DNA of 64,000 bases from Clostridiales bacterium (GTDB lineage: Bacteria > Bacillota > Dehalobacteriia > UBA7702): NCBI GenBank assembly GCA_040776805.1, contig JAXGZS010000001.1, positions 413,016 to 477,015 of the forward strand. Reading direction: 5' to 3'. The position numbers and the translations under genes are program-made. The notes under the pieces were generated by a model. The model was given only the letters and a program-made list of their open reading frames with translations. It was not told the origin of the DNA and did not search any database. Positions 9,146-51,062 of this stretch are shown here, in pieces. Within the stretch, counting starts at the first letter, position 1, and every line of letters begins with the position of its first letter.

Positions 9146-9626
9146 GACTGTTTTCCTCCAAAAATACTCTATTTTTACGTGAATCATCAAGATCCTTAAA
9201 AAGTCTACTACATCTCTTATTTTTTGTCAATCAACGAAACGGGCGGCAAGAGGATCATCCATTTCTTCCTTTTATATATAACTTTTAAAATGAGCACGTT
9301 TGTTTTTTCATATGACGTGAACCAGGAGGAATTATAAAAAAGAAAGTCTCAACCAGATTTTTCTATTTCTCTGCAGTACGTTGACTTATGTTTATAAAAA
9401 TGGAAACTAAAAAATTGTGTTTCGTTTATTATTTTGCCCGAAAAAGGTATTCTTTGTGTGAAAGAATTGAAAATTCTTGCTTTTTAATTTTTTCGGGACT
9501 ATACTTAGAGCGTATTAAATGAATCTCCTTGCTTTTAGGGAAAAGGGATTGTTTTTATTTATATATGTTTTATATTTTCCTGAAAAATAGGCAGATTCAA
9601 AAAAACCAAAAGAAGAGGGGATTGAA

Positions 9627-11633
9627 TTGGATACCATGTTTTTCGGCACATTAGCATTTCTGATTTTATTTCCGACCGTGATTGCGCTGATTCTTTTGGC
9701 TGTTAAAAATGATGCCGCAAGAGGCGGAATTGTCAAAGTAGCGTCTATTCTGATCGCTTTGGGTTCCGTCGCTCTTGCCGTGGTGTATTTTATGAACGGG
9801 GGAGGCACGACCATTGCGTTCGACAGCGAAGTGGTTTCCTACGCCATGATGATCATCGAGATTCTTTTGGGTCTCGTCATCATCGTCCTCGGGATCAAGT
9901 ACAGACATTATTGGGCATCGGTTTTAGCGGCGATTCAGACGCCTTTGATGATTTGGTTTGAATTAACCAAAGGTCATAGCGTTGAAGTCAGCTACAATCT
10001 CTATGTCGACGGTCTTTCGGTAATCATGGCATTGATTATCGGAGTCATTGGTAGTCTTATCATTGTTTACGCTTTGGGCTACATGAAGGATTACCAACAT
10101 CACAACGCGGACAAACCGGATAGAAGACCATTCTTCTTTTTCATCATGTTTGTCTTCCTTGCCGCGATGTTCGGCATTGTCACCGCGAACAATTTGGTTT
10201 GGATGTATTTCTTCTGGGAAATTACGAGTTTGACCTCGTTCTTCCTGATCGGCTATTCCAAAACAGAAGAAGCGATCAAAAACTCCTTCCGCGCTCTGAT
10301 CATGAATCTCGGCGGCGGTCTCGGTTTTGTCCTCGCCATCCTTTTCTTGGGCAATTTCTGCGAAACCGTTGAATTGTCCGGCTTGCTCAGCGGCGGCGCC
10401 GCAGGAACTTGGGGTTACTATTTGACCATCCCCGTTGCCCTGCTGGCTTTTGCCGGGATCACCAAAGCCGCGCAAATGCCTTTCTCCAGTTGGCTCTTGG
10501 GCGCAATGGTGGCGCCGACTCCCGTTTCCGCGTTGCTCCATTCCTCCACCATGGTGAAAGCCGGTGTTTTCCTCATCATCAAGCTGGCTCCCGTGATGGG
10601 CGTATGGGTTCCCGGTTACGAACAGTCCTATAGCGCGCTCTATTATAATTACGCCGGCATTATGGTCATGATGGTCGGGGGTATTACCTTCCTCATCGCT
10701 TCCTTCATTGCCATTTCCCAGTCCAATGCCAAACGCGTTTTGGCTTATTCCACCGTGGCGAACCTCGGCTTGATCGTTTGCTGCGGCGGCATCGGTACCG
10801 CTGCTGCGGTTTGGGCCGGGATTATGCTGATTATCTTCCATGCCATCGCTAAATCTTTGCTGTTCCTCGGCGTCGGTACCACCGAACACCGCATCGGTAG
10901 CAGAGACATCGAGGATATGGACGGTCTCTTTGTGAGATTGCCCAATGTGGCGAAATTTATGATCGTTGGCATCTGCGGTATGTTTATCGCACCCTTCGGG
11001 ATGTTGATTTCCAAATGGGCGGCGATGGTTTCGTTTATCGATTCCGGTAATCCGTTCCTTATTTTACTGCTGGTCTTCGGTTCCGCGGCAACGCTGTTCT
11101 TCTGGGCCAAATGGCTCGGCAAGCTCACCGCCGTGGTCGCCGGCAAAGACAATCACGAAGCTCTGGGGATTTCCGGCGAAGAAAAAATGGTGCTTGGCAC
11201 CTTGACCGGCCTGACCGTGGCTGCTTGCTTGTTCTTCCCGATCCTTTCCTCCGGCGCGGTGGTTCCCTATCTCAGCGGATTCTTCTCCGATATTGAGACA
11301 GGCATGTTAAGCAGCGGTAACCTCGCGATTATGGTCTTTATGGTGGCCGCGCTCATTTTGTTGGTCGCCTTCTTCTACGGCAAAACCAATAAGAAGATCG
11401 TACCGATCTATCTTTCCGGTGAAAATGTAGGCGATGATATCTCTTTCCGCAACTCCTTTAAAAAGAATCAGGCTTCCCAGTTGAAAAACTGGTACATGGA
11501 AGCCTATTTCGGTGAAAAGAAAATGAATCGGATCGGTATCATCAGCACAGTTCTGATCATTACCCTTGTCGCTCTTTGGATCGGTGTGATGGCCGGTATT
11601 TTGCTCCACTATTTCCAGGGAGGTGCGTTCTGA
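9627..11633 (+). CDS. echA: Energy-converting hydrogenase subunit A (complex-I NuoL/antiporter-like proton-pumping membrane subunit)
   Basis: A 668-aa polytopic protein with the NuoL/MrpA-like core (...SWLLGAMVAPTPVSALLHSSTMVKAGVFL...). It is the first gene of a six-gene ech-type cluster. The start appears to be TTG 9627, after GAGGGG. Confidence 0.8.
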   Translation: MDTMFFGTLAFLILFPTVIALILLAVKNDAARGGIVKVASILIALGSVALAVVYFMNGGGTTIAFDSEVVSYAMMIIEILLGLVIIVLGIKYRHYWASVLAAIQTPLMIWFELTKGHSVEVSYNLYVDGLSVIMALIIGVIGSLIIVYALGYMKDYQHHNADKPDRRPFFFFIMFVFLAAMFGIVTANNLVWMYFFWEITSLTSFFLIGYSKTEEAIKNSFRALIMNLGGGLGFVLAILFLGNFCETVELSGLLSGGAAGTWGYYLTIPVALLAFAGITKAAQMPFSSWLLGAMVAPTPVSALLHSSTMVKAGVFLIIKLAPVMGVWVPGYEQSYSALYYNYAGIMVMMVGGITFLIASFIAISQSNAKRVLAYSTVANLGLIVCCGGIGTAAAVWAGIMLIIFHAIAKSLLFLGVGTTEHRIGSRDIEDMDGLFVRLPNVAKFMIVGICGMFIAPFGMLISKWAAMVSFIDSGNPFLILLLVFGSAATLFFWAKWLGKLTAVVAGKDNHEALGISGEEKMVLGTLTGLTVAACLFFPILSSGAVVPYLSGFFSDIETGMLSSGNLAIMVFMVAALILLVAFFYGKTNKKIVPIYLSGENVGDDISFRNSFKKNQASQLKNWYMEAYFGEKKMNRIGIISTVLIITLVALWIGVMAGILLHYFQGGAF

Positions 11634-12556
11634 TGACAATTGGATTTCTTTCCGACGCCTTCGGTTTTAACTTTGGTATATGGAACATCGTTTCCATGCT
11701 TGCCTTTGTTGTTTTGGCGCCTTTCGTCGGCGGTTTACTGGCCGGGATCGACCGTAAAATTACCGCGAGAATGCAGGGACGTTTTGGCCCCCCCATCCTT
11801 CAGCCTTTTTACGATGTGCTAAAGCTGACGGAAAAAGAACCGATTACCGTCAATAACTACCAGGACTTCTATATTGGGAGTTTCCTATTCTTCATTATCT
11901 TGACCGGCGTGTTTTTCTTTGCCGGTGGCGATCTCTTACTGGTGATCTTCGCCCTGACCTTGGCCAGTGTATTCATGATTGTGGCGGCGTTTTCCTCCAA
12001 CTCTCCTTACGCCCAGGTCGGCGCGGAACGTGAATTGCTCCAGATGATGGCTTACGAACCCATGGTCCTTTTGACCGCCGTTGGTTTTTACATGGTCATC
12101 GGCACCTTTGATGTGATCGACGTGCTCTCTGCCAATCTCCCCGCCATCGTTTATTTGCCCGGCGTTTTCATTGGTTTTGTCTACATTCTGACCTTGAAAT
12201 TCAGAAAATCGCCTTTCGATTTGAGTATGTCCCACCACGCGCATCAGGAATTGGTCAAAGGACTTTCCACGGAGTTATCCGGTAAAACCTTGGCTTTGCT
12301 GGAAATTGCCCACTGGTATGAAAACGTATTCCTGCTGGGTTTCGTTTTCCTTTTCGTTGCGTACACCAATTGGATCAGCGTCATCGTCGCCGTCGTTGTC
12401 TGTCTGCTGATTTACTTCTTTGAAGTATTCATCGACAACAACTTCGCCAGAATGAAATGGCAGGTCGCCATGAATTCTTCCTGGGTCATTGCGCTGACCG
12501 TTGGCTTTGTTAATATTTTCGTGCTGTATTTCCTGAAACTGTTCGGGGTATTATAA
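11633..12556 (+). CDS. echB: Energy-converting hydrogenase subunit B (NuoH-like membrane subunit)
   Basis: A TGATG overlap with the echA stop and GGAGGTG 7 nt upstream. The protein is an 8-TM NuoH/HyfC-like membrane subunit. The ORF-track N-terminal extension overlaps echA and was discarded. Confidence 0.8.
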   Translation: MTIGFLSDAFGFNFGIWNIVSMLAFVVLAPFVGGLLAGIDRKITARMQGRFGPPILQPFYDVLKLTEKEPITVNNYQDFYIGSFLFFIILTGVFFFAGGDLLLVIFALTLASVFMIVAAFSSNSPYAQVGAERELLQMMAYEPMVLLTAVGFYMVIGTFDVIDVLSANLPAIVYLPGVFIGFVYILTLKFRKSPFDLSMSHHAHQELVKGLSTELSGKTLALLEIAHWYENVFLLGFVFLFVAYTNWISVIVAVVVCLLIYFFEVFIDNNFARMKWQVAMNSSWVIALTVGFVNIFVLYFLKLFGVL

Positions 12557-12570
12557 GAGGAGGTGTCAAT

Positions 12571-13086
12571 ATGTCATATGTAACCAAATCACCCTGGTTG
12601 ATTCATTATGATGGTTCAAGCTGTAACGGCTGTGATATTGAAGTGTTGGCGTGCCTTACCCCGATGTATGACGCCGAACGGTTTGGTATCATCAATACCG
12701 GGAATCCAAAACATGCCGATATTTTCCTCGTCACCGGCGGCGTGAACGAGCAGAATAAAAATGTAGTCAAACAGATCTACGATCAGATGCCCGAACCGAA
12801 AGTCGTTGTGGCGGTAGGGATCTGCGCCTGTTCCGGCGGAATTTTTGCGGAATGCTATAATATCCTCGGCGGCGCCGACAAGGTGATCCCTGTGGATGTC
12901 TACGTTCCCGGCTGCGCGGCCAGACCGGAACAGATCATTGACGGTATTGTCCAGGGCCTCGGCGTGCTTGCCGAGAAAAGAGCCGCGATGGGCAAAGCCC
13001 CGGCGGCCACGGCTGCAGCGGCGGCAAAACCCCAGGACAAACCGGAAGAAAAGCCCGCTGCGGAACCGGAAGCTAAACCGGAGTAA
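12571..13086 (+). CDS. echC: Energy-converting hydrogenase small subunit (NuoB-like, [4Fe-4S]) with an Ala/Pro/Glu/Lys-rich C-terminal tail
   Basis: The NuoB-type cysteines (CNGCD...ICACSGG...VPGCAARP) are present. The RBS is AAGAGGAGGTG. Confidence 0.8.
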   Translation: MSYVTKSPWLIHYDGSSCNGCDIEVLACLTPMYDAERFGIINTGNPKHADIFLVTGGVNEQNKNVVKQIYDQMPEPKVVVAVGICACSGGIFAECYNILGGADKVIPVDVYVPGCAARPEQIIDGIVQGLGVLAEKRAAMGKAPAATAAAAAKPQDKPEEKPAAEPEAKPE

Positions 13087-13101
13087 AGTAGGAGGTATTT
13101 A

Positions 13102-13449
13102 ATGTTTACGGATTTTAATCTAAAAGTCATTGAACCTACCGAATTGGTCGATACTGCCCGTACTTTAAAAGCAGAAGGTTATCGGATGGTGCAGATCTGC
13201 GCGACGAAAATCCCCGATGCTTATGAATTAACCTATAGCTTCGATAAGGATCTCGAGTTATACCATTATCGCGTGATTCTTCCTGAAGGCCAGGATATTC
13301 AAAGCATCACCGATTCCTACTTCGCGGCTTTTGTTTACGAAAACGAAATAAAAGACCTTTTCGGTATCAACATTACACACATTGCTCTCGATTTCCAAGG
13401 CGGTTTCTTCGTGACCAACGAACCCACGCCGTGGAAAGACAGCAAGTAA
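13102..13449 (+). CDS. echD: Energy-converting hydrogenase subunit D (small NuoC-like subunit)
   Basis: A 115-aa ORF between the small and large subunit genes, in the position expected for EchD. The RBS is AGGAGG. Confidence 0.65.
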   Translation: MFTDFNLKVIEPTELVDTARTLKAEGYRMVQICATKIPDAYELTYSFDKDLELYHYRVILPEGQDIQSITDSYFAAFVYENEIKDLFGINITHIALDFQGGFFVTNEPTPWKDSK

Positions 13450-13465
13450 GAAAGGAAGGTAGAAC

Positions 13466-14545
13466 ATGGCAAAACAAACTATTATTCCTTTCGGACCGCA
13501 ACATCCGGTTTTGCCGGAGCCGGTTCATCTCGACCTTGTGCTGGAAGATGAAAAAGTCGTTCAGGCGATTCCCTCCATCGGCTTTATCCACAGAGGTCTT
13601 GAAAAACTGGTGGAAAAGAAGGAATATACCGAACTGATGTATGTCACCGAAAGAATTTGCGGTATTTGCGCTTTCGGTCATAACTGGGGCTATTGCCACG
13701 CCATTGAGATTTTGCTCAACGTCGAAGTCCCTGAAAGAGCGGAATACCTCAGAATCATGTGGCATGAAATGTCCAGAGTTCACAGCCATCTGCTTTGGCT
13801 CGGTCTCCTTGCCGACGCTTTTGGTTTTGAAAGCTTATTCATGCATTGCTGGCGCTTAAGAGAAGGGGTTCTTGATCTCTTCGAAAAAACCACCGGCGGC
13901 CGCGTGATTTTCTCCGTGAATAAAATCGGCGGCGTTCACCGTGACGTCAGTCCTGAAATGCTCAAGGAGATCTCCACAGTGATTGCGGGGATGAAAAAAG
14001 AATACGACGAGCTGGCCACAGTTTTTATGGAGGACATCTCCGTGAAGAACCGTACCGTCGGCGTGGGCAAGGTGTCCAAAGAAGACGCCGCGGCCCTCTG
14101 CGCCGTTGGCCCCACCGCCCGTGGTTCCGGGATTTCTACGGATATCCGCAGCACCGGCCATAGTATTTACGGGAAGCTTGGTTTTGAACCCATCGTGGAA
14201 GAAGGCGGCGACTGCTATGCCCGCGCCCTGGTCCGCGTGAAAGAAGTATACCAATCCATGGAAATGATTCAGAAGATCATTGCCGAAATGCCCGAAGGTG
14301 AAATCGCCGTGGCCGTCAAAGGGAAACCGGAAGGCGAATTCATGGCCCGGGTAGAACAGCCCCGGGGGGAATCCTGCTACTATGTAAAAGGTAACGGTAC
14401 CAAAAACCTGGACCGTATGAGAATCAGAACGCCTACAAATATCAACGTTCCTTTCCTCGTCAGCGCATTGGCCGGTTGTGAATTGGCCGACGTGCCCGTC
14501 ATCGTTCTAAGTATCGACCCCTGCATCAGCTGCACAGAAAGATAA
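13466..14545 (+). CDS. echE: [NiFe] hydrogenase large subunit of the energy-converting hydrogenase (NuoD-like)
   Basis: The N-terminal RICGICAFGH and C-terminal DPCISCTER motifs are the two CxxC pairs that ligate the Ni-Fe site. Confidence 0.85.
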   Translation: MAKQTIIPFGPQHPVLPEPVHLDLVLEDEKVVQAIPSIGFIHRGLEKLVEKKEYTELMYVTERICGICAFGHNWGYCHAIEILLNVEVPERAEYLRIMWHEMSRVHSHLLWLGLLADAFGFESLFMHCWRLREGVLDLFEKTTGGRVIFSVNKIGGVHRDVSPEMLKEISTVIAGMKKEYDELATVFMEDISVKNRTVGVGKVSKEDAAALCAVGPTARGSGISTDIRSTGHSIYGKLGFEPIVEEGGDCYARALVRVKEVYQSMEMIQKIIAEMPEGEIAVAVKGKPEGEFMARVEQPRGESCYYVKGNGTKNLDRMRIRTPTNINVPFLVSALAGCELADVPVIVLSIDPCISCTER

Positions 14546-14556
14546 GGAGGATAGAT

Positions 14557-14937
14557 ATGGCATCATTTAAAATGGGTAAGATGGTAATGAGAAGCCTGTT
14601 TGGTAAGCCGGCTACCCTCATGTATCCCGTGAAACCCGCAAAAATCACGGAAGCCACCCGTGGTCATATAACCATTGATGTGGATACCTGCATCTTCTGT
14701 GGCATCTGTCAGAAAAAATGCCCCACCAACGCCATCGTCGTTGACCGCAAAGACCGGGTTTGGAGCATTGAACGCATGAGATGCATCCAGTGCAACGCCT
14801 GCGCGGTAAACTGCCCCAAAGACTCGTTGCTGATGGAAACGACGTATACCGCTCCCAGCGCGGTAAAAATTACCGATACCTTCCAGGGGCCGCCCAAAGA
14901 GGAAAAGGCTCCGAAAGAAGCTGCGGCGGAAGCATAA
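14557..14937 (+). CDS. echF: Energy-converting hydrogenase subunit F (2x[4Fe-4S] ferredoxin, NuoI-like)
   Basis: Two CxxCxxCxxxCP motifs are present (CIFCGICQKKCP and CIQCNACAVNCP). Confidence 0.8.
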   Translation: MASFKMGKMVMRSLFGKPATLMYPVKPAKITEATRGHITIDVDTCIFCGICQKKCPTNAIVVDRKDRVWSIERMRCIQCNACAVNCPKDSLLMETTYTAPSAVKITDTFQGPPKEEKAPKEAAAEA

Positions 14938-14960: not shown

Positions 14961-15305
14961 ATGCATGAATATCCGATCACCCAGCAGATCATCAAAATCG
15001 CCGAAAATCACGCCAAAAAGGCCGGTTCAGCCAAAGTGACCGCCATCCATTTAGTGGTTGGCGAGTACTCCGGCTTCATCGGCGAGAGTATTCAGATGTA
15101 CTTTGACGTCATCTCTAAAAACACCCTCTGCGATGGCGCGAAAATCAACATTCAAAGAGTAAAGCCAAAACTGCAATGCAATCAGTGCGGCGCCTATTTT
15201 GAAAGGAGAGCGTTTTCCTTTCAATGCCCTGAATGCGGCGGTGAAGGCGGTCCAACGGAGATCGGCAAAGAATTCTATATAGATTCCATTGAAGTTGAAA
15301 CGTGA
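14961..15305 (+). CDS. hypA: Hydrogenase nickel-insertion / maturation factor HypA
   Basis: The N-terminus MHEYPITQQIIKIAE and the zinc ribbon CNQCGAYF...CPECG are typical of HypA (114 aa). Confidence 0.8.
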   Translation: MHEYPITQQIIKIAENHAKKAGSAKVTAIHLVVGEYSGFIGESIQMYFDVISKNTLCDGAKINIQRVKPKLQCNQCGAYFERRAFSFQCPECGGEGGPTEIGKEFYIDSIEVET

Positions 15306-15326
15306 TGAAGTTGAGACTTGCGATGA

Positions 15327-15351
15327 GGGGCAGGCACAACGTGCCTGCCCC
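15327..15351 (+). terminator. Strong GC hairpin (GGGGCAGGCAC-aac-GTGCCTGCCCC) 22 nt after the hypA stop; a terminator or REP-like element, without a U-tail
   Basis: An 11-bp perfect stem, read directly from the sequence. Confidence 0.45.
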
Positions 15352-15358
15352 TTACGGC

Positions 15359-15384
15359 TTCCCAGAGCGGCTAATACACGGCAA
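15359..15384 (+). repeat. 26-nt direct repeat, copy 1 (TTCCCAGAGCGGCTAATACACGGCAA)
   Basis: This matches copy 2 at 15486-15511 with 2 mismatches. Confidence 0.5.
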
Positions 15385-15485
15385 CCCCCCTGCCTCGCGA
15401 CAGCTTGTGTACTTTGGTGTACACGGCGCGGCCGCAAGCCAGTGCGTTCACCGCGTCTAAGCCGTTCTGAAAAGCCTTGAACTTC

Positions 15486-15511
15486 TTCCCAGAGTGGCTG
15501 ATACACGGCAA
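15486..15511 (+). repeat. 26-nt direct repeat, copy 2 (TTCCCAGAGTGGCTGATACACGGCAA)
   Basis: It lies 127 bp downstream of copy 1. A 10/11 inverted-repeat pair (15445-15455 CGTTCACCGCG and 15576-15585 CGCGGTGAAC) surrounds it. Confidence 0.5.
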
Positions 15512-15611
15512 AATGCGTCGAAGCCGCCCCAAGCCTTGCTCGGATTACCAAGATTGACGATAACATCGACTGATCCGCGGTGAACCCGCGTTTTCATATT
15601 GACCCGGTCTT

Positions 15612-15636
15612 CTTGTCGAAACAAGGAGTTTTTTTG
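15612..15636 (+). terminator. Terminator-like hairpin (CTTGTcgaaACAAG followed by T8) in the hypB leader; a second one follows at 15666-15686 (TCCGCaagGGCGGA followed by T6)
   Basis: Two short stem-loops with U-runs lie within 100 nt upstream of the hypB RBS. A third (CCGCGG-tgaac-CCGCGG followed by TTTT) is at 15576-15594. Confidence 0.4.
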
Positions 15637-15712
15637 AAAACGGAGAACATATAAGTAGTGAATCTTCCGCAAGGGCGGATTTTTTAAAAACCGGTTTTCT
15701 AAAGGAGAACAG

Positions 15713-16372
15713 ATGATGCACGACGTGATGAGAATTGATATCAAAGAAAATATCCATGATGAAAACGATCATATCGCAGAACATGTAAAGGAACACTTTT
15801 CCGCCCACGGTATCCTGGTGGTCAACGTGATGGGCGCACCCGGCGTCGGCAAAACAACGACGCTGAAGAATATATTCCAACACCTGCAAACAGCGAAGCC
15901 TTACGTGATTGAGGGCGATATCGAAAGCGATATCGATACCCAGGATCTGCAAAACAGGGGCATCGACACCTTTCAAATCAACACCTTCGGCGCCTGTCAT
16001 CTTGACGCGCCCTTAATCCATGAAGCCATCCATAAGATGGACTTCAACGAGGAGGGGATTCTCTTCATTGAGAACATCGGCAATCTCGTCTGCCCCGCGG
16101 AGTTTTCCATCGGGGAACATGTGAAAATGCTCATCAGCACGGTCACCGAAGGCAGTGATAAACCGTATAAATATCCTTTGGCCTTTGAAAAAGCCGACAT
16201 CATCCTGATCAATAAATGCGATTTGTTGCCTTATGTTGATTTTGATGAGGAGTTCTTTATGAAAGGCGTACGGGCCCAAAACAAAGACGTACCCGTTTTT
16301 AAAGTTTCGGGGAAAACCGGCGAGGGCTACGCGGAAGTCGCCGCCTGGCTGGAAAAACATGATCTCGACTAA
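15713..16372 (+). CDS. hypB: Hydrogenase maturation nickel metallochaperone / GTPase HypB
   Basis: The P-loop GAPGVGKTT, the ENIGNLVCPAEF motif (CPA...) and the NKCDL GTPase motif are all present. The RBS AAAGGAG lies 5 nt upstream. Confidence 0.85.
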   Translation: MMHDVMRIDIKENIHDENDHIAEHVKEHFSAHGILVVNVMGAPGVGKTTTLKNIFQHLQTAKPYVIEGDIESDIDTQDLQNRGIDTFQINTFGACHLDAPLIHEAIHKMDFNEEGILFIENIGNLVCPAEFSIGEHVKMLISTVTEGSDKPYKYPLAFEKADIILINKCDLLPYVDFDEEFFMKGVRAQNKDVPVFKVSGKTGEGYAEVAAWLEKHDLD

Positions 16373-16385
16373 CCGGAGTGAACGG

Positions 16386-18721
16386 ATGCAAACGGAAAAA
16401 ATAACGATCTGGGGCATCGTCCAGGGAGTCGGCTTTCGGCCCTTTATCGCGAAGCTCGGCGACGAAATGGCTATGGCAGGCGTGGTGCGCAATAACGGCG
16501 GTCTCGTGGAGATCACCGTCACCGATACGCAAGCGCGCATCGACGCTTTTGTCGCCGCCATCAAGGCGCGAAAGCCTTTGCCCGCGGAAATCGTCCATCT
16601 ACGCAGAGAACGAAAACCGTTTCAGGAATTTGAGGGCTTCTCCATTGCCGCCAGCGGCGAAATCGACGACGAAGCGCCGATGATCCCGGCGGATCTTGCC
16701 CTTTGCCCCGCTTGTTTCAATGACTTGAACGACAAAGCAAATCCCCGCTACCGCCATCCTTTTATCAGCTGTATGGCCTGTGGCCCCCGGTATACGATCA
16801 TTGACAAAATCCCTTATGACCGGGCGCATACGGCCATGGCCGATTTCCCCATGTGCAGCTTTTGTGAAAAAGAGTACACCGATAGAAATGACCGCCGCTA
16901 TCACGCCCAGACCATCTCCTGTCATGATTGCGGCCCCCAGCTGAAAAAATATCAAAGTGATCTTGAAAAGGAGGACGCCGTCAAAGAAGCTGTCTCCCTC
17001 CTCTCAAAAGGTGAGATCATTGCCGTAAAAGGCGTCGGCGGCTACAATTTTATCGCGTCTCCCTTTTGCCATGAGGCCGTGGTGCGGCTGCGACAACTCA
17101 AGGGCCGGGAGGAAAAGCCTTTTGCCGTGATGTTCTACGATGAAACCCAGGTCAGAGCGTATTGCGATCTGACGGAGGAGGAAAGCGCCCTTTTAAACAG
17201 CGCCGCCCGCCCCATCGTGCTCCTGGAAACGAAGAAAACGGCTTTTTCCCCGGAAGTCAATAAGACGAGCCGCTACACCGGCTGTTTTTGCCGAGCATGG
17301 GTTTGCAGTATCTCCTCATCGAAGCTTGCGGCCCCCTCATCGTCACCAGCGGCAATCTCTCCGATATGCCGATGATCCGTGAGGATGAAAAGATGTTTCG
17401 TCTCTATGAAGAGAAAAAGTAGCTCCTTGCCGCCGTTTTTTATCACGACCGCGGCATTCGTATGACCGTTGACGATTCCGTGGTGCGGGTTATTGATCAT
17501 CAGCCCCAAATGATCCGCCGGGCCAAGGGCTACGCCCCGGTACCGCTTTTTATCGCCGGTGACGCGCCCCTTAAAAAAGAGGATCAGATCTTGGCCCTTG
17601 GCGGTCAGCTCAAAGCGGCGTTTACCTTGAGCAAAGGCCATTTTGCCTATGTCAGCCAATTTTTCGGCGATCTCGACGCCGAAGAGATCCGCAGGAATTA
17701 TGTGGAAACCATCGAGGATTTAAAGGCGCTTTTTCATATCACGCCGCAACTTCTCGTTACCGATATGCATCCCCTCTACTTCACTTACAATTTTGCCAAG
17801 GAATACGGGGAAAAACACCAAATCCCGATTTTGCGGGTGCAGCATCACCACGCCCACGTGGCTTCGGTCATGGCCGAGCACGGCCTTGGCGGCGACGTCA
17901 TCGGCGTCAGCTTTGACGGCACCGGCTACGGTGCTGACGGGACCATCTGGGGCGGTGAATTTCTCGTCTGCAACGGCGCAAAATATCTAAGAGCCGCCCA
18001 TTTACAGACGATTCCCATGATCGGCGGCGATCATTCCATGAAGGAAGCCTGGAAAACGGCGATGTGTTACATGGCCTCGGTGGGAGGTGCGGCGGAAAAA
18101 TCCCCCCTTTCTACCGATAACCGTTACGCGGTGGTCAAAGCCGGCTTGTATCATGGGATCAACGGCATCGGCAGTTCCAGTATGGGACGGCTTTTCGACG
18201 CTGTGGCGGCGCTCCTCGGCATTGCTATGGAAAACCGTTACGAGGGAGAATGCGCCATTATGCTGGAGAACGCCGCGGCCCGCGCCGAAAAGCTGGGCCT
18301 CTCTCCCCATAAGATGGTCTTTATGTATTGGAACGACGGCGGTGTTTGGCAGATTTCCGCGGCTCCGATCCTCCAGGCCATTGCCCGCGGTCTCGACCAG
18401 GGCGTCGCCATCGACTGCATGGCCCTGGGCTTTCACCAAGCGGTGGGGGACATGGTCGCCGCCTTGGCGGAAAAGATCAGGGAAGAGGTTCCTACGAACC
18501 AAGTGGCATTGACAGGCGGTGTTTTTCAGAATAAAATCTTAATGGAATATACCTTGTCCCTTTTGCGGACAAAGGGTTTTGATGTATATTACAATATATC
18601 TGTCGGTCCCAATGACGGTGGCGTCTCTCTGGGACAAACATATATTGCGATGGAATATCTGAAGGAGGATCAACATGTGCATTGCGATTCCGGGCAAACT
18701 CATGACCATGGAAGGCAGTAA
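16386..18721 (+). pseudogene. hypF: hypF (carbamoyltransferase HypF), disrupted by a -1 frameshift in a T5 run near 17285-17289 and an in-frame TAG at 17420-17422
   Basis: The acylphosphatase domain (WGIVQGVGFRPF), two Cx2C-x18-Cx2C zinc fingers and a YrdC-like segment (GEIIAVKGVGGYNF) are read in frame 0 up to about 17283. The continuation LPSMGLQYLLIEACGPLIVTSGNLSDMPM...EEKK is in frame 2 and stops at TAG. LLAAVFYHDRGIRMTVDDSVVR...RRAKGYAP and the Kae1-like C-terminal domain (HHHAH...) then continue in the same frame to 18721. Confidence 0.7.
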
Positions 18722-18899
18722 AGGAACGGTCAGTTTCGGCGGTACGGAAATGAAAGTCCATCTCGGCCTGGTGGAAGCCAACATTGGCGATTATGTGCTG
18801 GTACACGCCGGCTGCGCCATTGAGGTGCTGCCGGAAGACCGGGCCCAGGAAATGATCGAGCTCTTTAAAGAATTAGATGACGAAGTGGAAAAAATCTGA
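18675..18899 (+). CDS. hypC: Hydrogenase assembly chaperone HypC
   Basis: The N-terminal MCIAIPGKL (essential Cys2) and 74-aa length fit HypC. The RBS is AAGGAGG. Confidence 0.85.
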   Translation: MCIAIPGKLMTMEGSKGTVSFGGTEMKVHLGLVEANIGDYVLVHAGCAIEVLPEDRAQEMIELFKELDDEVEKI

Positions 18900-19942
18900 T
18901 GGAAGCGGCAAAAATCATTCACGAACTGAAACATTATAACGGCCCGGAGGTCAAGTTGATGGAGGTTTGCGGCACCCATACGGCGGCCATCTTCAAAAGC
19001 GGCATCCGCTCCCTGCTTTCTCCCAAAATCAAGCTGATTTCCGGCCCCGGCTGCCCTGTCTGCGTCACCCCCACGGCCTATATCGACCGGTGCGTCGCCT
19101 ATGCCCAAAAGGACCGCCACGTCCTTTATACTTTCGGTGATATGATGAAGGTACCGGGGACGAACAACAGCCTCAGCACCGCCAAAGGGGATGGCGCCAA
19201 AGTGGAGCTGATGTTTTCTCCCTTAGACGCCGTGGAAGCGGCGGCCAAGGATCCCGATACGACTTACGTCATCGCCGCCGTGGGGTTTGAAACGACGATC
19301 CCCGCCTATGCTTTGGCTTTGGCGGAGGCCCAATTAAAAGGCGTTGAGAACTTGCTGTTATTGACTGCCCTGAAAACCACATTGCCGGCCATAGAATGGA
19401 TTTGTGAGAACGAGAAGGGGATCGACGCTTTTATCTGTCCCGGTCACGTCAGTGTGATCACCGGCAGCGACGCCTATACCGCCTTTGCGAAGAAGTATCA
19501 TAAACCTTTCGTGGTTACCGGCTTTGAAGGCGAGCATATTTTGGCGGCGATTTATGAAATGGTGGAGCAACTGAAAAAAGGCGAAGGCAAGGCGAAGAAC
19601 CTCTACCGCAACGCTGTGCGGGATCGGGGCAACGCCAAAGCCCGGGCCTTGATCGAAGAATATTTTATCTCCGGTTACGCCATGTGGCGGGGACTGGGGG
19701 AAATTCCCGGTTCCGGGATGTATCTGAAAGAAGCGTATCAAAGGTACGACGGCGGCAGTTACGGCCTGGATAAAGACGCGGTTTTGGCCAAATCTTGCCG
19801 TTGCGGAGAGGTCATCGTCGGCCGCGTCAACCCTTGCGACTGCCCCATGTTCGGGAAGGGCTGCACGCCCACGAAGCCTTATGGGCCCTGTATGGTCTCG
19901 GCGGAGGGCGCTTGCGGTATTTGGTATCGCAATACGATTTGA
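18899..19942 (+). CDS. hypD: Hydrogenase maturation factor HypD
   Basis: The MEVCGTHT (CGxH) and GPGCPVC motifs are present. TGATG overlap with hypC. Confidence 0.85.
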   Translation: MEAAKIIHELKHYNGPEVKLMEVCGTHTAAIFKSGIRSLLSPKIKLISGPGCPVCVTPTAYIDRCVAYAQKDRHVLYTFGDMMKVPGTNNSLSTAKGDGAKVELMFSPLDAVEAAAKDPDTTYVIAAVGFETTIPAYALALAEAQLKGVENLLLLTALKTTLPAIEWICENEKGIDAFICPGHVSVITGSDAYTAFAKKYHKPFVVTGFEGEHILAAIYEMVEQLKKGEGKAKNLYRNAVRDRGNAKARALIEEYFISGYAMWRGLGEIPGSGMYLKEAYQRYDGGSYGLDKDAVLAKSCRCGEVIVGRVNPCDCPMFGKGCTPTKPYGPCMVSAEGACGIWYRNTI

Positions 19943-19950
19943 GGTGCAAT

Positions 19951-20931
19951 ATGAAAATAACCATGGCCCATGGCAGCGGCGGAAAGTCCTCCGCCGAATT
20001 GATGCAGGCTGTTTTTGGCAAATATTTTAAAAACGACGTCCTGGATAAGATGGAAGACGCCGCAGTCTTGGAGATCAGCGGCAAAATTGCCTTTTCCACC
20101 GATTCCTTTGTGGTCACGCCCACGGTTTTCAAAGGCGGCGACATCGGCAAATTAGCGGTTTGCGGTACCGTCAACGACCTTTTGATGATGGGCGCGAAAC
20201 CCCTTTACCTGACCAGCGCCTATATTCTAGAAGAAGGTCTTAGTGGGGAGCATTTGGAAACCTGCGTGGCCTCGATGGCCAAAACCGCGGCGGAGGCCGG
20301 CGTGAAAATCGTCGCCGGTGATACGAAAGTGGTGGAAGGCAACGGCGGCCTGATCATCAATACCACGGGAATCGGCCTGATCCCGCCGGAGCGGGAAGTC
20401 AGCGCCGGGAACCTGCGGGAAGGCGATAACATCATTGTTTCCGGTTATCTCGGTGATCATCACGCCTGTATTTTAAGCCACCGAATGAAACTCGCCAACG
20501 ACATTGTCAGCGACTGCGCGCCTTTAAACGATGTGGTCGACGCCCTCTTTGCCAGCGGCGCCGCGGTCAGAGCCATGCGGGATATCACCAGGGGCGGCCT
20601 CGGCACCATGCTCAATGAATTCGCCGCCGCCTCTCGCTGCGGCATCGAGCTGGAGGAAGCGAAAATCCCTGTTCGCGACGAAGTGCAGGGTTTCTGCGGC
20701 ATCCTGGGTCTCGATCCCCTTTACATGGGAAATGAGGGGAAAATGCTGGCAGTGGTCGCCGCCGCCGACGCCGAAAAGGCCTTGGCCGCCATGAGGAGGA
20801 CAGAACACGGCAAAGACGCCGTGCTTCTCGGTACGGTCACCGGGGGCAAAGGCGTTGTGATGAAAACGCGCCTAGGGGGGAAGCGTGTTGTGGATATGCT
20901 TTACGGCGAGGGTTTGCCTCGGATCTGTTAG
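19951..20931 (+). CDS. hypE: Hydrogenase maturation factor HypE (carbamoyl dehydratase)
   Basis: The N-terminus MKITMAHGSGGK and the C-terminal ...GEGLPRIC, ending in the conserved terminal Cys, fit HypE. The start is ATG 19951 after GAGGTG. The ORF-track 5' extension overlaps hypD and was rejected. Confidence 0.85.
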   Translation: MKITMAHGSGGKSSAELMQAVFGKYFKNDVLDKMEDAAVLEISGKIAFSTDSFVVTPTVFKGGDIGKLAVCGTVNDLLMMGAKPLYLTSAYILEEGLSGEHLETCVASMAKTAAEAGVKIVAGDTKVVEGNGGLIINTTGIGLIPPEREVSAGNLREGDNIIVSGYLGDHHACILSHRMKLANDIVSDCAPLNDVVDALFASGAAVRAMRDITRGGLGTMLNEFAAASRCGIELEEAKIPVRDEVQGFCGILGLDPLYMGNEGKMLAVVAAADAEKALAAMRRTEHGKDAVLLGTVTGGKGVVMKTRLGGKRVVDMLYGEGLPRIC

Positions 20932-21879: not shown

Positions 21880-21934
21880 GGTGTCCCTTGCCGACCAGTT
21901 CCAAAACTGTGACCAGCAAGGGACACCTTTTTTT
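21880..21934. terminator. Bidirectional terminator between the lipid kinase gene (+) and bioA (-)
   Basis: GGTGTCCCTTG...CAAGGGACACC followed by T7 on the plus strand; the reverse complement is preceded by A6. Confidence 0.6.
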
Positions 21935-23270
21935 ACAGTACTTCCTCTATGGCTGTGGCGCAGCGGTAAACGGCCTTATCCATCTCTGTTTCCGTGATGG
22001 TCAGAGGCGGATTGAAATAGAGTACGTTGCCCAAAGGGCGCAAAATCAGCCCGTGGGCCAAAGCCCTTTGGTAGATTTCGTAACCGATGCGTTTATTTTC
22101 GTCAAATCCCGCTTTCGTTTTTTTATCCGTTACCAGTTCCATGGCGTTGATCAGGCCGAGATGACGGATCTCGCCGATGTTGGGATGATCTGAGAGCCGT
22201 GTTAAAAGTTTTTTATGGAGATATTGGGCGCGGAGGGCGGCATTTTCTAAAATATGCTGCTCCCGCAAGATTTTCTGTACGGCCAGGGCCGCGGCGCAAC
22301 CCAGGGGATTGCCGCTATAGGTGTGACTGTGCATAAAAGCTTTGCCCTCTTTATAATCGGCGTAAAAGGCCTCATAAACCTTGTCCGTGGTGGCGGCGAT
22401 GGCCATGGGCAGATAGCCCCCGGTCAACCCTTTGGAAAGGCACATGATGTCCGGGGTTATGGCGGCGTGATCGCAGGCGAACATTTTGCCGGTACGGCCA
22501 AAGCCGGTGGCAATCTCGTCGGCAATCAACAACACGCCGGTCTGATCACAGAGAGCCCGTAGCTTTTTCAGGTAAAGGGGCGGGTAGATGCGCATGCCGG
22601 CGCTGCCTTGGAGGAGCGGCTCCACAATCACGGCGCAGGTGGTATCGGCGTAGCGGTCAAAGCATTTTTCAGCCTCTTCAAAGCAGTTTGCTTGGCAATT
22701 TTCGCGGTTTTGGCGGTAGGGGCAGCGGTAGCAGTCCGGGGCGGGAATCCGTACGGTATCCATGAGCAGCGGTTGGTAAATCTTTGCGTACATATCCAGG
22801 GAGCCTACGGCCAGGGCGCCGATGGTTTCACCGTGGTAGCCTTCACTTAAGCACATAAACCGGGTTCTTTTCATCTGACCCGTTTGGTATTGATATTGAA
22901 ACGCCATCTTTAAGGCGCATTCCACAGCGCTGGAGCCGCAATCGGAAAAATGAAATTTCGTCAGACCTCGGGGCACGCTTTTGCTAAGCTCTTGGCAGAG
23001 TTCAATGACGGGTTTGTGGGAAAAGTTGGCGAGAATCACGTGTTCCAATGTATCGAGCTGTTTTTTGACGGCTTCGTTGATTTCGGGATTGCAGTGCCCC
23101 AGCAGATTACACCACCAGGAACTGATGATATCGATGTACTCCTTGCCCTCCATATCGTAAAGATACACACCTTTGCCGCGGTCAATGACGATGGGGGGAA
23201 ATGATTCATAGTCTTTCATTTGGGAGCAGGGATGCCAAATATATTTTAAGTCTTTTTGGGCTAAATTCAT
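21933..23270 (-). CDS. bioA: Adenosylmethionine-8-amino-7-oxononanoate aminotransferase
   Basis: The N-terminus MNLAQKDLKYIWHPCSQMKDY... is characteristic of BioA. The 445-aa class-III aminotransferase is the last gene of the bio operon. Confidence 0.9.
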   Translation of the reverse strand: MNLAQKDLKYIWHPCSQMKDYESFPPIVIDRGKGVYLYDMEGKEYIDIISSWWCNLLGHCNPEINEAVKKQLDTLEHVILANFSHKPVIELCQELSKSVPRGLTKFHFSDCGSSAVECALKMAFQYQYQTGQMKRTRFMCLSEGYHGETIGALAVGSLDMYAKIYQPLLMDTVRIPAPDCYRCPYRQNRENCQANCFEEAEKCFDRYADTTCAVIVEPLLQGSAGMRIYPPLYLKKLRALCDQTGVLLIADEIATGFGRTGKMFACDHAAITPDIMCLSKGLTGGYLPMAIAATTDKVYEAFYADYKEGKAFMHSHTYSGNPLGCAAALAVQKILREQHILENAALRAQYLHKKLLTRLSDHPNIGEIRHLGLINAMELVTDKKTKAGFDENKRIGYEIYQRALAHGLILRPLGNVLYFNPPLTITETEMDKAVYRCATAIEEVL

Positions 23271-23947
23271 GGTCGTCTCTCCTCAAAAAGGGATCGTAGC
23301 GTGTCTTTGTCAATGGCGAGGTCGCCTGCGTCGGGAGGGATCAGGGCGAGGATAGGCAGTCCGGTGATGGCGTTAATCATCGCGGCGTTGTCTTTTTCCA
23401 TCGCCGTTTTCGTAAAGCGGTTCAGGATGACGCCGCGACAGCCGAGGTCCCTGCTCTTTAGGTATTCCGCCGTAAGCGTCACGGCGTTGATGGCGCCGAG
23501 ACCGGCGTCGGCGACGATGAGCGTATCAAGATTCAGGGCGACGATGATGTCTTCTAAAAAGATATGAGTTTTGTCGTCGTAACGAAGGGGACAGACGATA
23601 CCGCCGCTGCCCTCCACGAGAACGTATTCGTGCTTTTTCTTCACGTCCTCATAATCATGGCGAACCTTTGCCAGCTCCACGGGGTTTCCTTCCCATTTGG
23701 CGGCGAGGTGAGGGGAAACCGCATGCCGATAGAGGTAGGAAAGCAAGCTGTTTTCTTCCTGATCAAGGCTGGCGACAGCCTTGACGTAGCCCGCATCGCT
23801 TTCTTTGGTGCTGTCGGCGCCGGAGAGGGCCGCTTTGTAGTAGCCGACGTGAAAGCCGTATGCTTTCATGGCTTTGGCCAGGAGGGCGGTGACGTAGGTT
23901 TTCCCCACGTCCGTACCGGTGCCGGTGATGAAGAGTCCGTATCCCAT
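23267..23947 (-). CDS. bioD: Dethiobiotin synthetase
   Basis: The P-loop-like ITGTGTDVGKTYVT is present. 4-nt overlap with bioA. Confidence 0.85.
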   Translation of the reverse strand: MGYGLFITGTGTDVGKTYVTALLAKAMKAYGFHVGYYKAALSGADSTKESDAGYVKAVASLDQEENSLLSYLYRHAVSPHLAAKWEGNPVELAKVRHDYEDVKKKHEYVLVEGSGGIVCPLRYDDKTHIFLEDIIVALNLDTLIVADAGLGAINAVTLTAEYLKSRDLGCRGVILNRFTKTAMEKDNAAMINAITGLPILALIPPDAGDLAIDKDTLRSLFEERRP

Positions 23948-23948
23948 T

Positions 23949-24908
23949 TCATGATACCTCGTAACCCAGTTCTTTTAAGATCTCCAAATCCGCGGCGGCG
24001 GAAATGCCCTTTGTCGTCAGCATGTCCCCGGTGATGGCGGCGTTGGCGCCTCCGGAGAAACAGGCGCGGCCTTTGTCCTTTAAATTGCCGCGGCCTCCCG
24101 CCAGGCGTAAAAAAGCGTTGGGCAGCAGAAAACGGAACACGGTGACCATGCGCCGAACCTCCTCTTCGGATAGGGGCGTTACCTTTTCCAGGGGCGTTCC
24201 CGGAATGGGTTCCAATATATTGAGGGGGACGCTTTTGATTTCTAGCTCCCTTAGGGTAAGAGCCAGTTCGATGCGGTCTTCCACCGTTTCGCCCAGGCCG
24301 AAAATACCGCCGCTGCACACTTCAAGGCCATTCCTGCGCGCGGCGGAAATCGTTTTGATTTTATCGTCGTAACTGTGGCTGGTACAGATTTGGGGAAAGA
24401 AGCGGCGGGAGGTTTCCAGATTATTGTGAATTCTGGTTATCCCTGCCGCTTTTAATTGTTTCAATTGGCTTTCACTGAGGAGTCCCAAGGAAGCGCAGAG
24501 AACGAGAGACGTTTCTCTTTTGAGTGTTTCGATGCTGCGGCAGACTTTTTCCATTTCCCGCGCCGAAAGCGATTTGCCGGAGGTGACGATACCGAAATGC
24601 TTCACTCCCCCTTGCTCCTCGGCATTGGCGGCGCGGAGGAGTTCCCTTTGGCTCAAGAGGGGGTAAGCGGTGATTTCCGCGGGATAGCGGCTGGACTGGG
24701 CGCAGAACTTGCAGTCCTCACCGCAGCGGCCGCTTTTGGCATTGACAATGGCGCAGAGGTCGAAGCGGTTGCCGCAGAAACGGCGGCGAATCTCGTCGGC
24801 GGCGGCGTTTAGGGGGACAAGGGGCGCTTCATAAAGGGCAAGCGCCTCCTCTTTTGTTACGGTTTGTTCGTGGAATATTTTTTCTTTGAGTCGGGCAATC
24901 TGCTGCAT
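23949..24908 (-). CDS. bioB: Biotin synthase (radical SAM)
   Basis: The radical SAM cluster motif SGRCGEDCKFCAQS and the conserved Y..I...R residues are present. Confidence 0.9.
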   Translation of the reverse strand: MQQIARLKEKIFHEQTVTKEEALALYEAPLVPLNAAADEIRRRFCGNRFDLCAIVNAKSGRCGEDCKFCAQSSRYPAEITAYPLLSQRELLRAANAEEQGGVKHFGIVTSGKSLSAREMEKVCRSIETLKRETSLVLCASLGLLSESQLKQLKAAGITRIHNNLETSRRFFPQICTSHSYDDKIKTISAARRNGLEVCSGGIFGLGETVEDRIELALTLRELEIKSVPLNILEPIPGTPLEKVTPLSEEEVRRMVTVFRFLLPNAFLRLAGGRGNLKDKGRACFSGGANAAITGDMLTTKGISAAADLEILKELGYEVS

Positions 24909-24909
24909 G

Positions 24910-25473
24910 TCATTTCCTTTGCATTTGCTGTACGATGGGGAGCAGGCGTTTGCCGAGGCCGGCGGCGACGGCGCAGAGCAGAAGATCCCCCGGTATCGGC
25001 AGCAGAAAACAGTATAAAAGAAGCGTGCGCACGGTCATGGCGTCTCCCAAATAAAAGCGGCTGATGACCCAACAGTAAGCCATGCCCAGGGCATAAACCA
25101 CAAGTAAGCCGGCGAAACTCGCCGCAAAGAGTCTTTTCACGGAAGGGTGGGGCGACTGTTCGGTGATTCTGCCGGTAACGAAAGCGCCGAGGCAAAAACC
25201 GAGCAGGTAACCGAAGCTGGGCTGAAAAACGTAGGCGAGGCCGCCGCCGGCGGCAAAGACGGGGAATCCCGCAAGACCCAGCAAGATATAGCAGGCGACG
25301 CTAAGGGCGCCGAGTCTGGAACCGAGGAGCATCCCGGCCAGGGTTGTAAAGAGAAATTGCAGGGTGAAGGGAACCACCGGAACGGGAATGCGGAGGAACG
25401 CGCCAAGAACGATCAATGCCGTGAATAAGGCGCAGAGTATTTGATTTTTGACGGTGATGGGATGTTGATTCAT
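24910..25473 (-). CDS. bioY: Biotin transporter BioY (ECF S-component)
   Basis: The N-terminus MNQHPITVKNQILCALFTALIVLGAFLRIPVPVVPFTLQ is typical of BioY. The start is probably ATG 25473; the ORF-track 24-codon extension lacks an RBS, so the start is uncertain. Confidence 0.75.
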   Translation of the reverse strand: MNQHPITVKNQILCALFTALIVLGAFLRIPVPVVPFTLQFLFTTLAGMLLGSRLGALSVACYILLGLAGFPVFAAGGGLAYVFQPSFGYLLGFCLGAFVTGRITEQSPHPSVKRLFAASFAGLLVVYALGMAYCWVISRFYLGDAMTVRTLLLYCFLLPIPGDLLLCAVAAGLGKRLLPIVQQMQRK

Positions 25474-25486
25474 CGGCGTGCGCCCA

Positions 25487-26467
25487 TCATTTCCAGCGAA
25501 CGCTGACTTCACCACTGTCCAAGGCATTTTCATTGCCATTCTCATCGCGGACGATCAGCCGAAAGTGATCGTCGATGGCGACGGCAGTGGCGGTATGCTC
25601 TTGGTTATGGCGCGATACGGTGATTTTTTGCCCCAGGAGAAAAGAGCGTTTTCGATATTCGGACAAGAAGGCCTTCTCCGTCAGCTTCTCATAATAGGGT
25701 ATAAAATGATTGAGAATTTCCGCTGCAAGCCGGCTTTTTATGCTGTTTTTGGTTTTTGCGTCGGTAAAAAGAGAGGTGGCGACCGTTTCCAGTTCCGGGG
25801 GAAAGTTCTCTTTCGGAGGGAAAACATTGACGCCGATGCCGACGACGGCGTAATCAAGACCGCCGTTTTCCATGGCGAGCGCGGCTTCAGTGAGAATGCC
25901 GCAAACCTTTTTACCGTCGAGATAAACATCGTTGACCCATTTGATTTGGGCGTTTTTGCCGGTGACGGCCTCAATGGCGAGGGCCGCCGCCGTCGCCGCC
26001 GCTGTGGTCAGTAAAAGGGAATCGGTAACGGAATACTTTGGCCGCAACAGGATGCTCATATAGAGACCCGTGTTGGCCGGGGAAAAGAAGCCTCTGTTTC
26101 TTCTTCCTCTGCCGGCACTCTGCTCCTCCGCAATGACCACGACGCCTTCGGTTTCGCCCTGATCGGCGAGTTCTCTTACGATCGCATTGGTTGAGGTGAC
26201 CAACGGATGCTTGATGAAACGTAATTCTTTTGCCGCGCCGGTCAGCTTTTCCGCAACGGTCGCCGCGGTGAAAAGATCGGTGTCCGCGGCGAGGGCGTAA
26301 CCCTTATTGGTGACGGCGGTAATGTCATAGCCTTCGGCTTGCAGCGATTTGATGCTTTTCCATACGGCGGCTCTGGTCACATAGAGGCGGGCGGCCAGCT
26401 CTTCGCCGGAAACGAAAGAGCCTTTCTCCGCAGCCAATAACGATAAAATTTGATCCTTGAGATTCAT
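25487..26467 (-). CDS. birA: Bifunctional biotin-protein ligase / bio operon repressor BirA
   Basis: An N-terminal wHTH (ELAARLYVTRAAVWKSIKSLQAEGYDI) is joined to a BPL catalytic domain. It is the first gene of birA-bioYBDA. Confidence 0.85.
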   Translation of the reverse strand: MNLKDQILSLLAAEKGSFVSGEELAARLYVTRAAVWKSIKSLQAEGYDITAVTNKGYALAADTDLFTAATVAEKLTGAAKELRFIKHPLVTSTNAIVRELADQGETEGVVVIAEEQSAGRGRRNRGFFSPANTGLYMSILLRPKYSVTDSLLLTTAAATAAALAIEAVTGKNAQIKWVNDVYLDGKKVCGILTEAALAMENGGLDYAVVGIGVNVFPPKENFPPELETVATSLFTDAKTKNSIKSRLAAEILNHFIPYYEKLTEKAFLSEYRKRSFLLGQKITVSRHNQEHTATAVAIDDHFRLIVRDENGNENALDSGEVSVRWK

Positions 26468-29600: not shown

Positions 29601-29612
29601 GTGCTGCCTCCT

Positions 29613-37257: not shown

Positions 37258-37440
37258 ATAAAGTTAAGTGCGGAGAAATCGGGTTTGAATCCCGAACGGT
37301 CGCGCCACTGTGAAACGGAGCTTACTTTAGACGCCAGTCAGCCACTGCCATAAGCGGGAAGGCAAAGTATAGCGATGATGTGAAGTCAGGATATTCCGAA
37401 CTTAATGCTGTACTCGCAGCTTCCGCGTAAGGAGTGATGC
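37258..37440 (+). promoter_or_regulatory. Cobalamin (B12) riboswitch aptamer
   Basis: Conserved blocks appear in the canonical order: GGGTTTGAATCCC, CGCGCCACTGTGAAACGGAGC, CAGCCACTGCC, GCGGGAAGGC, and GATGATGTGAAGTCAGGATATTCCGAAC (a B12-box variant). A sigma70-like promoter (TTGCCG-17-TAGAAT) lies at about 37214-37245. Confidence 0.6.
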
Positions 37441-50783: not shown

Positions 50784-50870
50784 GCCGAAGTGGTGGAATA
50801 GGCAGACACGCGGGACTTAAAATCCCGTGGTAGCGATACCGTACCGGTTCGACCCCGGTCTTCGGCACCA
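50784..50870 (+). tRNA. tRNA-Leu (anticodon UAA), class II with a long variable arm
   Basis: The acceptor stem is GCCGAAG/CTTCGGC, followed by ACCA. The anticodon stem CGGGA/UCCCG carries loop CUUAAAA, giving anticodon UAA. The length is 87 nt. Confidence 0.85.
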
Positions 50871-51048: not shown

Positions 51049-51062
51049 GTTCGTCTATTCAT

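Follow-up and report, generated by a model that had tools for sequence, protein, structure and literature searches.

The hypF gene in this region is interrupted twice, by a frameshift and by a stop codon, in the middle of an otherwise intact hydrogenase cluster. The question raised by the locus is whether the gene has truly been lost, is broken only in the assembled sequence, or is still expressed in some unusual way. The whole stretch of DNA that was analysed, 64,000 nucleotides in length, is called here the window, and all positions refer to it.

The cluster has the gene order echABCDEF-hypA-hypB-hypF-hypC-hypD-hypE. Its first part, echABCDEF (9627-14937, plus strand), is a six-subunit group-4 [NiFe] hydrogenase operon in which all genes are intact. 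These were recognized through the Pfam families of their orthologues (PF00361, PF00146, PF01058, PF00329, PF00374/PF00346 and Fer4) in locus L001, the corresponding region of a related genome described below, to which they give full-length, gap-free matches at 95-98%. EchE contains the Ni-Fe ligand motifs RICGICAFGH and DPCISCTER, in agreement with the general pattern RxCGxC/DPCxxC, and is therefore a genuine [NiFe] large subunit needing the Fe(CN)2CO cofactor. The Ech hydrogenase is presumed to be the client of HypF. The accessory genes are all located on the plus strand and were identified by Pfam: hypA (14961-15305) and hypB (15716-16372), separated by a gap of about 400 nucleotides and both matched in L001, hypC (18675-18899), hypD (18899-19942) and hypE (19951-20931). 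The last three align with L001 without gaps at 94-96%, hypD and hypE over the full length and hypC over residues 1-69, with a C-terminus of different length. The initial annotation had described every other ech and hyp gene as intact, and the gap-free alignments to the L001 orthologues, in the same frame throughout, bear this out. Altogether, 20 other genes common to the window and the L001 locus are collinear, with no gaps or frame changes. Eighteen of these 20 align over the full length; the other two, hypC and bioA, show a slight difference at one end.

The hypF gene spans positions 16386-18721 of the plus strand and is divided into three segments. The first segment, in frame A, runs from the ATG at 16386 to position 17288, with a translation ending in NKTSRYTGCF. 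It contains the acylphosphatase domain (PF00708), the two HypF zinc fingers (PF07503) and the first 60% or so of the YrdC-like domain (PF01300), and it is 92% identical to residues 1-301 of the L001 HypF (tblastn). At its end is a run of five T (17285-17289) within the sequence GCTGTTTTTG (17281-17290), and the alignment of the DNA with L001 shows this run to be the site of a one-nucleotide deletion relative to intact relatives, which have T6 in L001 and L002. Homology to HypF resumes from 17288 in the -1 frame, frame B, as LPSMGLQYLLIEACGPLIVTSGNLSDMPMIREDEKMFRLYEEKK. This second segment (17288-17419) has 44 codons and carries the LIVTSGNLS motif of the YrdC-like domain, corresponding to PF01300 positions 103-141. 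Frame B is then stopped by a TAG at 17420-17422, 135 nucleotides beyond the frameshift. The third segment (17423-18721) continues in the same frame as LLAAVFYHDRGIRMTVDDSVVR up to the TAA at 18719-18721; in it the YrdC-like domain is completed and is followed by the Kae1-like carbamoyltransferase domain (PF17788, PF22521). Taken together, the second and third segments (window 17285-18718) are 97% identical to residues 301-778 of the L001 HypF. Insertion of one T gives a frame of 778 residues in which the TAG is the sole interruption.

These results reproduce the description in the initial annotation, which had placed a frameshift at the T run and a TAG 135 nucleotides after it, with the same coordinates and frames, and had proposed that one extra T would restore the reading frame, as it does. 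The distribution of the HypF domains over three segments is also as had been described, and the Pfam profile for YrdC is split exactly at the break. The mechanical list of open reading frames shows three over the gene, at 16359-17375, 17288-17422 and 17462-18721, the first and last of which are the two long ones given earlier.

The identity of the gene was assessed on a repaired HypF, in which one T was inserted and the TAG was read as a sense codon. This product of 778 amino acid residues matches positions 1-740 of the 741 in the family model TIGR00143 with 679 bits, the cut-off being 466, and it can be aligned from end to end with the HypF structure 3VTH (E 4e-162). The domain matches of the frame A product include an acylphosphatase-like domain in residues 5-87 (E 3.2e-15) and two zinc-finger stretches (E 4.5e-28); the Kae1-like domain is recognized by PF17788 (E 1.9e-32) and PF22521 (E 7.5e-72). 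Judging from these matches, the gene is orthologous to that of the carbamoyltransferase HypF and lies in an ech-hypABFCDE cluster. The repaired gene has the same four modules, namely acylphosphatase, two zinc fingers, YrdC-like domain and Kae1-like domain, as the HypF proteins represented by TIGR00143 and the structures 3VTH/3VTI, 4G9I and, from E. coli, 3TSP/3TTC. The setting beside hypA, hypB, hypC, hypD and hypE and a [NiFe] hydrogenase operon also corresponds to that known for HypF. The difference lies in the reading frame, which is broken twice here within the YrdC-like domain, leaving the written sequence below the family cut-off.

As the sequence is written, the two long reading frames score 325 and 302 bits against TIGR00143, each under the equivalog cut-off, and no single product exceeds it. 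Positions 284-354 of the model, which include the invariant TSGN segment, are covered by neither. The YrdC/Sua5 profile is matched at positions 2-103 in frame A and at 103-141 in the short frame B piece, which is absent from both long reading frames and aligns to the TSGN segment of 3VTH. A complete YrdC/Sua5-like domain with TSGN is thus obtained only once the gene is repaired, and the alignment to 3VTH likewise places the conserved TSGN stretch in the lost middle part. Because this segment is in neither of the two annotated reading frames and each fragment falls below the cut-off, hypF as written would be unable to yield a functional HypF. The same conclusion had been reached in the initial annotation, and it is well supported by the missing segment and the fragment scores.

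It is important to compare the two lesion sites with the same positions in related genomes. The best database match is an intact HypF of 778 residues with 95% amino acid identity from Peptococcaceae bacterium UBA7702 (DLGE01000001.1), which is the locus L001 used above. This organism belongs to the GTDB class Dehalobacteriia, order UBA7702 (PMC10327494). Its hypF is like that of the window in length, in gene order and in an unusual overlap of 47 nucleotides between hypF and hypC, but it is intact at the lesion sites: it reads AGT TTT TTG, with T6, and GAG, where the window reads TG- TTT TTG and TAG. Synteny between the window and UBA7702 extends over about 20 kb at about 89-93% DNA identity (about 90-93% in the ech-hyp region), while the stretch with the bio operon is more divergent, at about 81%. 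The identity of about 90-93% suggests that the two genomes represent different species. A scan of GTDB genomes gave six relatives of the same clade at 78-95% amino acid identity and two distant matches at 35-36%, and none of these genomes was of the same species.

The hypF gene is uninterrupted in all six of these related genomes, that is, in UBA7702 and in five others at 78-93% identity. At the first site the six have AGTTTTTTG, TGCTTTTTG, TCCTTCCTC, TCTTTTCTC, GCTTTTCTG and TGTTTCCTG, all in frame, the last five of these being from the relatives other than UBA7702. The T tract is not kept across L003-L007. At the second site the five further relatives have GAT, GAA, GAG or GAC, coding for Glu or Asp, and Pro is found in a single, more distant homologue. 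The varied codons at the first site, such as TTCCTC or TTTCTC, all of them in frame, argue that the T tract is a mere accident of synonymous codon choice. Both lesions are private to the window genome.

The age of the lesions can be estimated from the substitutions in the gene. Pairwise dN/dS for hypF is 0.093 against UBA7702 and 0.080 against L003, and the neighbouring genes have values of 0.04-0.26, most of them 0.06-0.13. Changes were also polarised with L003 as outgroup, which isolates the lineage of the window. On this lineage hypF has 37 synonymous and 7 non-synonymous substitutions, giving an omega of 0.054. The neighbours have 11 non-synonymous to 75 synonymous substitutions, and hypF is not different from them (Fisher p = 0.60). 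The part of the branch following inactivation amounts to at most about 3.5%, or about 6 neutral substitutions in hypF. The gene has been under strong purifying selection, with omega about 0.05, for essentially the whole lineage. It was fully constrained until very recently, or is still constrained, and the lesions are therefore either very recent or not real.

Expression of the gene in spite of the lesions would offer one explanation, although an improbable one. A phase switch at the T run, or a -1 slippage site combined with read-through of UAG, for example as pyrrolysine, could provide some full-length HypF. Slippage of tRNA-Phe from TTT at 17286-17288 to TTT at 17285-17287 would restore the ancestral peptide GCFLPS exactly, and the TAG occupies a variable position where Glu, Asp or Pro is found. 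In cultured members of its class, Dehalobacteriia, pylTSBCD are present and UAG in methyltransferase genes is translated as pyrrolysine (PMC6778437). However, both lesions are absent from the six relatives. The hypF gene of each of these is read plainly in one frame, so that no orthologue needs a frameshift, and the tract, a matter of synonymous codon choice in them, is neither conserved nor variable in length as that of a switch would be. Contingency tracts are usually homopolymers of at least 7-8 nucleotides, and a run of 5-6 T (here T5, ancestrally T6) is far below this; it is also unremarkable among the 447 runs of such length in the window, 341 of 5 nucleotides and 106 of 6. A likeness to phase-variable loci and programmed -1 sites is seen in the change of frame at a homopolymeric T tract, but the tract in hypF is short, unconserved, without a stimulatory structure and followed by an additional nonsense codon. 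A full X XXY YYZ heptamer is lacking, the slippage would involve a single tRNA on TTT only, and the 81 nucleotides downstream fold no better than shuffled sequences (z = 0.25). As for the stop codon, TAG serves as an ordinary terminator for about 8 of 65 other reading frames in the window, including hypE, and the orthologues have Glu or Asp, not a conserved UAG, at this position. HypF is not known as a pyrrolysine protein, nor is it a methylamine methyltransferase. None of the scanned reading frames in the window matched a pyl-family gene, and ARAGORN found no tRNA-Pyl in the window, only a tRNA-Leu. Even if the TAG were read as pyrrolysine, the frameshift would remain. Phase-variable control, which the initial annotation had suggested, thus finds no support in a tract of 5-6 nucleotides that is unconserved in six relatives and adjoins a second, non-reversible lesion; what stands of the earlier interpretation is the anatomy of the gene and its lack of function as written, and its two other proposals, sequencing error and recent pseudogenisation, are weighed below. 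It is more improbable still that the lesions are real and yet a little full-length HypF is made by -1 slippage of tRNA-Phe on T5 together with pyrrolysine or near-cognate read-through of UAG, in which case maturation would be throttled and not abolished. An equally slight chance is given to a functional split gene, in which the N-terminal product of 329 residues and the C-terminal product of 419 residues would cooperate, or the C-terminal part would work alone. Both long reading frames do retain good domain matches, and truncated HypF variants exist in some bacteria; for example, HypF1 of Cupriavidus necator is functional though it is without the acylphosphatase and zinc-finger parts. However, the known truncated forms keep the YrdC-like and Kae1-like modules whole, while the break in this gene falls within the YrdC-like domain and not at a domain boundary, and the model positions with the invariant TSGN are lost to both products. 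In addition, hypF is fused in all the close relatives.

We lean towards the reading that the lesions are real and very recent, and that hypF has only just become a pseudogene in the sequenced population. The ancestral T6 would have lost one T and GAG would have changed to TAG 135 nucleotides downstream, both in this lineage only; the first lesion would have inactivated the gene, leaving the second free to persist. Two hits in one gene with the neighbours untouched is the signature expected of relaxed constraint after a first hit. The less probable but quite possible alternative is an artefact of sequencing or assembly, in which the real hypF has T6 and GAG and is intact. Both lesions would then stem from a stretch where quality or coverage is locally low, for example through gap filling with long reads, failed polishing or a mixture of strains. 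The deletion in a homopolymer is a classic consensus error, the lesions are just 135 nucleotides apart, a spacing that has p = 0.11 inside hypF, and the selection signature of hypF and its pristine ech and hyp neighbours fit a functional gene equally well. Furthermore, the only two G>T changes on the window lineage are 19 nucleotides apart and could have come from one bad patch. The proteins of the window trace to one NCBI contig of 709,774 bp that has no protein accessions, as is typical of metagenome-assembled genomes. The source would thus appear to be such a genome, without annotation and perhaps built from long reads or hybrid data, and long-read and hybrid assemblies can retain homopolymer indels and poor patches. 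N-terminal HypF fragments are also frequent on long contigs in public assemblies.

An exact-protein look-up of HypC led to one Logan contig (L010, SRR27558879, 1,087 nucleotides), which is 100% identical to window positions 18069-19155. No other independent sequence of the strain was found, and this one ends 650 nucleotides downstream of the TAG. The Logan assembly of this run yields only a contig of 1 kb, and the long contig of the window may thus derive from other data, perhaps long reads, which again would suit an artefact. The same look-up with HypD, HypB and both HypF fragments gave no match, a protein search with 210 residues around the lesions gave as its only 100% match the N-terminal fragment of the window itself, and two window-specific patterns, tolerant of T5 or T6 and of the base at the TAG, had no matches among JGI metagenome contigs. 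Against an artefact stands the quality of the remaining sequence. The frame is undisturbed throughout about 52 kb of other supported coding sequence in the window, and 86 coding homopolymers of at least 6 nucleotides in supported reading frames, 19 of them of 7-8 nucleotides, are all in frame. Among the roughly 60 genes checked in the window, hypF is the only one visibly disrupted. For two independent errors placed uniformly over 52 kb of coding sequence, the probability of a spacing of at most 135 nucleotides is about 0.005. The second lesion is a substitution and counts against an artefact because few random substitutions create stop codons, about 1 in 20-25 by our rough estimate. The patch around the lesions is not enriched in other window-specific differences. 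Two other sources of error were considered and rejected: a repeat-mediated misassembly, since only short chance repeats occur there and none able to cause it, and a recombination or chimera breakpoint, since hypF diverges from L002 and L003 evenly over its length. Since the assembly is clean elsewhere, real inactivation is somewhat likelier than an artefact, and the balance is tipped modestly towards real mutations.

If the lesions are real, their consequence would follow from the established biochemistry of HypF. This protein converts carbamoyl phosphate into carbamoyl-adenylate and then into a thiocarbamate on HypE, from which the cyanide ligands of the [NiFe] centre are formed. The gene as written would give a product of 329 residues, made up of 301 HypF residues and an out-of-frame tail of 28 residues, with a truncated YrdC-like domain, and at best a separate Kae1-like fragment of 419 residues, with the TSGN segment in neither. 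Because the YrdC-like domain is not intact, the synthesis of the cyanide ligands would be blocked, and neither thiocarbamate nor cyanide would reach HypE and HypCD. Without them EchE, the large subunit, could not acquire the Fe(CN)2CO centre. Ech, although its genes are intact, would then be silent, as the initial annotation had also concluded, provided that the genome has no other copy of hypF. Such a loss would be tolerable where there are [FeFe] hydrogenases, which need no Hyp proteins. Enzymes of this type are reported in all analysed genomes of Dehalobacteriia (PMC10327494).

Real lesions would place this genome at the very first step in the loss of an Ech-type [NiFe] hydrogenase, with the maturation gene dead and the structural and accessory genes still pristine. 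The presence of the ech genes would then not be evidence of Ech activity in this strain of an uncultured lineage of Dehalobacteriia, order UBA7702. The two disabling hits, one by homopolymer slippage and one by a nonsense change, the intact neighbours and a dN/dS that is not yet raised are all features of young pseudogenes. Unlike the established examples, the lesions in hypF are known from the assembled sequence. If they are artefactual, they merely flag a locally poor stretch of the assembly. In either case the finding is of an ordinary kind in a known gene and implies no new biology or mechanism.

Several other places in the window at first resemble broken genes. Suspicious pairs of adjacent reading frames on the same strand proved to be separate full-length genes or artefacts of the start codon, and the apparent overlaps, including spoVAC/spoVAD and spmA/spmB, likewise come from the choice of start codons in the mechanical listing. 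The aminotransferase at 89-571 is truncated by the edge of the window. The large reading frames with Pfam matches span their profiles essentially from end to end, with the exception of one weak and partial thymidylate-synthase-like match.

The gene hypF carries 56 substitutions private to the lineage of the window, and only two of these are G to T changes, at window positions 17401 and 17420. They are separated by 19 nt; one is synonymous (CGG to CGT) and the other generates the TAG codon. The pair could have arisen in one event that altered several nucleotides, or it could mark a single stretch of poor sequence. A small hairpin, AGCCG-CTACAC-CGGCT, is located immediately 5' of the T5 run of hypF (window 17268-17283). 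Together with the T5 run it makes a weak terminator-like match, and its 3' arm is not conserved in the closest relative with an intact hypF, Peptococcaceae bacterium UBA7702. Slippage at the T5 tract might be favoured by this hairpin. Numerous N-terminal HypF fragments of approximately 300-360 aa, from long contigs of up to 1.5 Mb, in public assemblies, are present in the public protein collection; genomes derived from metagenomes therefore often have hypF called as split or frameshifted.

The gap between hypA and hypB (window 15306-15715) consists of about 400 nt of non-coding sequence and contains three terminator-like hairpins on the forward strand (15576-15590, 15609-15628 and 15666-15679), each followed by a T-run. 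The gap is present in the relative (positions 8828-9330 of its locus, L001) with lower conservation, the BLAST alignment being interrupted at 15480-15572, and it gave no matches to Rfam. It may act as a terminator or attenuator dividing ech-hypA from hypBFCDE. Further downstream, the 3' end of hypF and the start of hypC share 47 nt (window 18675-18721). This overlap is unusually long, and it is native to the clade because the overlapping tail, ...HVHCDSGQTHxH, is kept in the closest relatives (L001 12291-12337).

The ech-hyp cluster is found in the reference genome of order UBA7702 as well (window 9627-14937; L001 3149-8459). Searching the comparative Dehalobacteriia paper (PMC10327494) by term turned up neither Ech nor [NiFe]; that paper credits only the order Dehalobacteriales with conserving energy through complex I and ATP synthase. 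Between the window and the relative, identity is 94-98% for the ech and hyp genes, while for the adjoining bioA-, bioD-, bioB-, bioY- and birA-like genes (window 21933-26467; L001 15601-20157) the protein identity is just 65-82%. This abrupt shift in divergence suggests recombination or replacement.

Elsewhere in the window, a cobalamin riboswitch aptamer (37277-37393, forward strand), which matches positions 49-166 of the 189 in model RF00174 at 56 bits, lies just downstream of the spoVA genes, and the ORFs after it have no Pfam match. The tRNA-Leu(TAA) gene (50784-50870, forward strand) is followed by about 1.4 kb (51000-52400) containing nothing but ORFs of 100-150 aa, also with no Pfam matches. 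On the reverse strand, two large redox genes are adjacent at 26598-31628. One codes for 1000 aa with 2Fe-2S, Fer4_20, Pyr_redox_2, Nqo3-like ferredoxin and molybdopterin-like parts, and the other for a NuoF-like protein of 671 aa; the pair resembles the electron-bifurcating complexes described for Dehalobacteriia.
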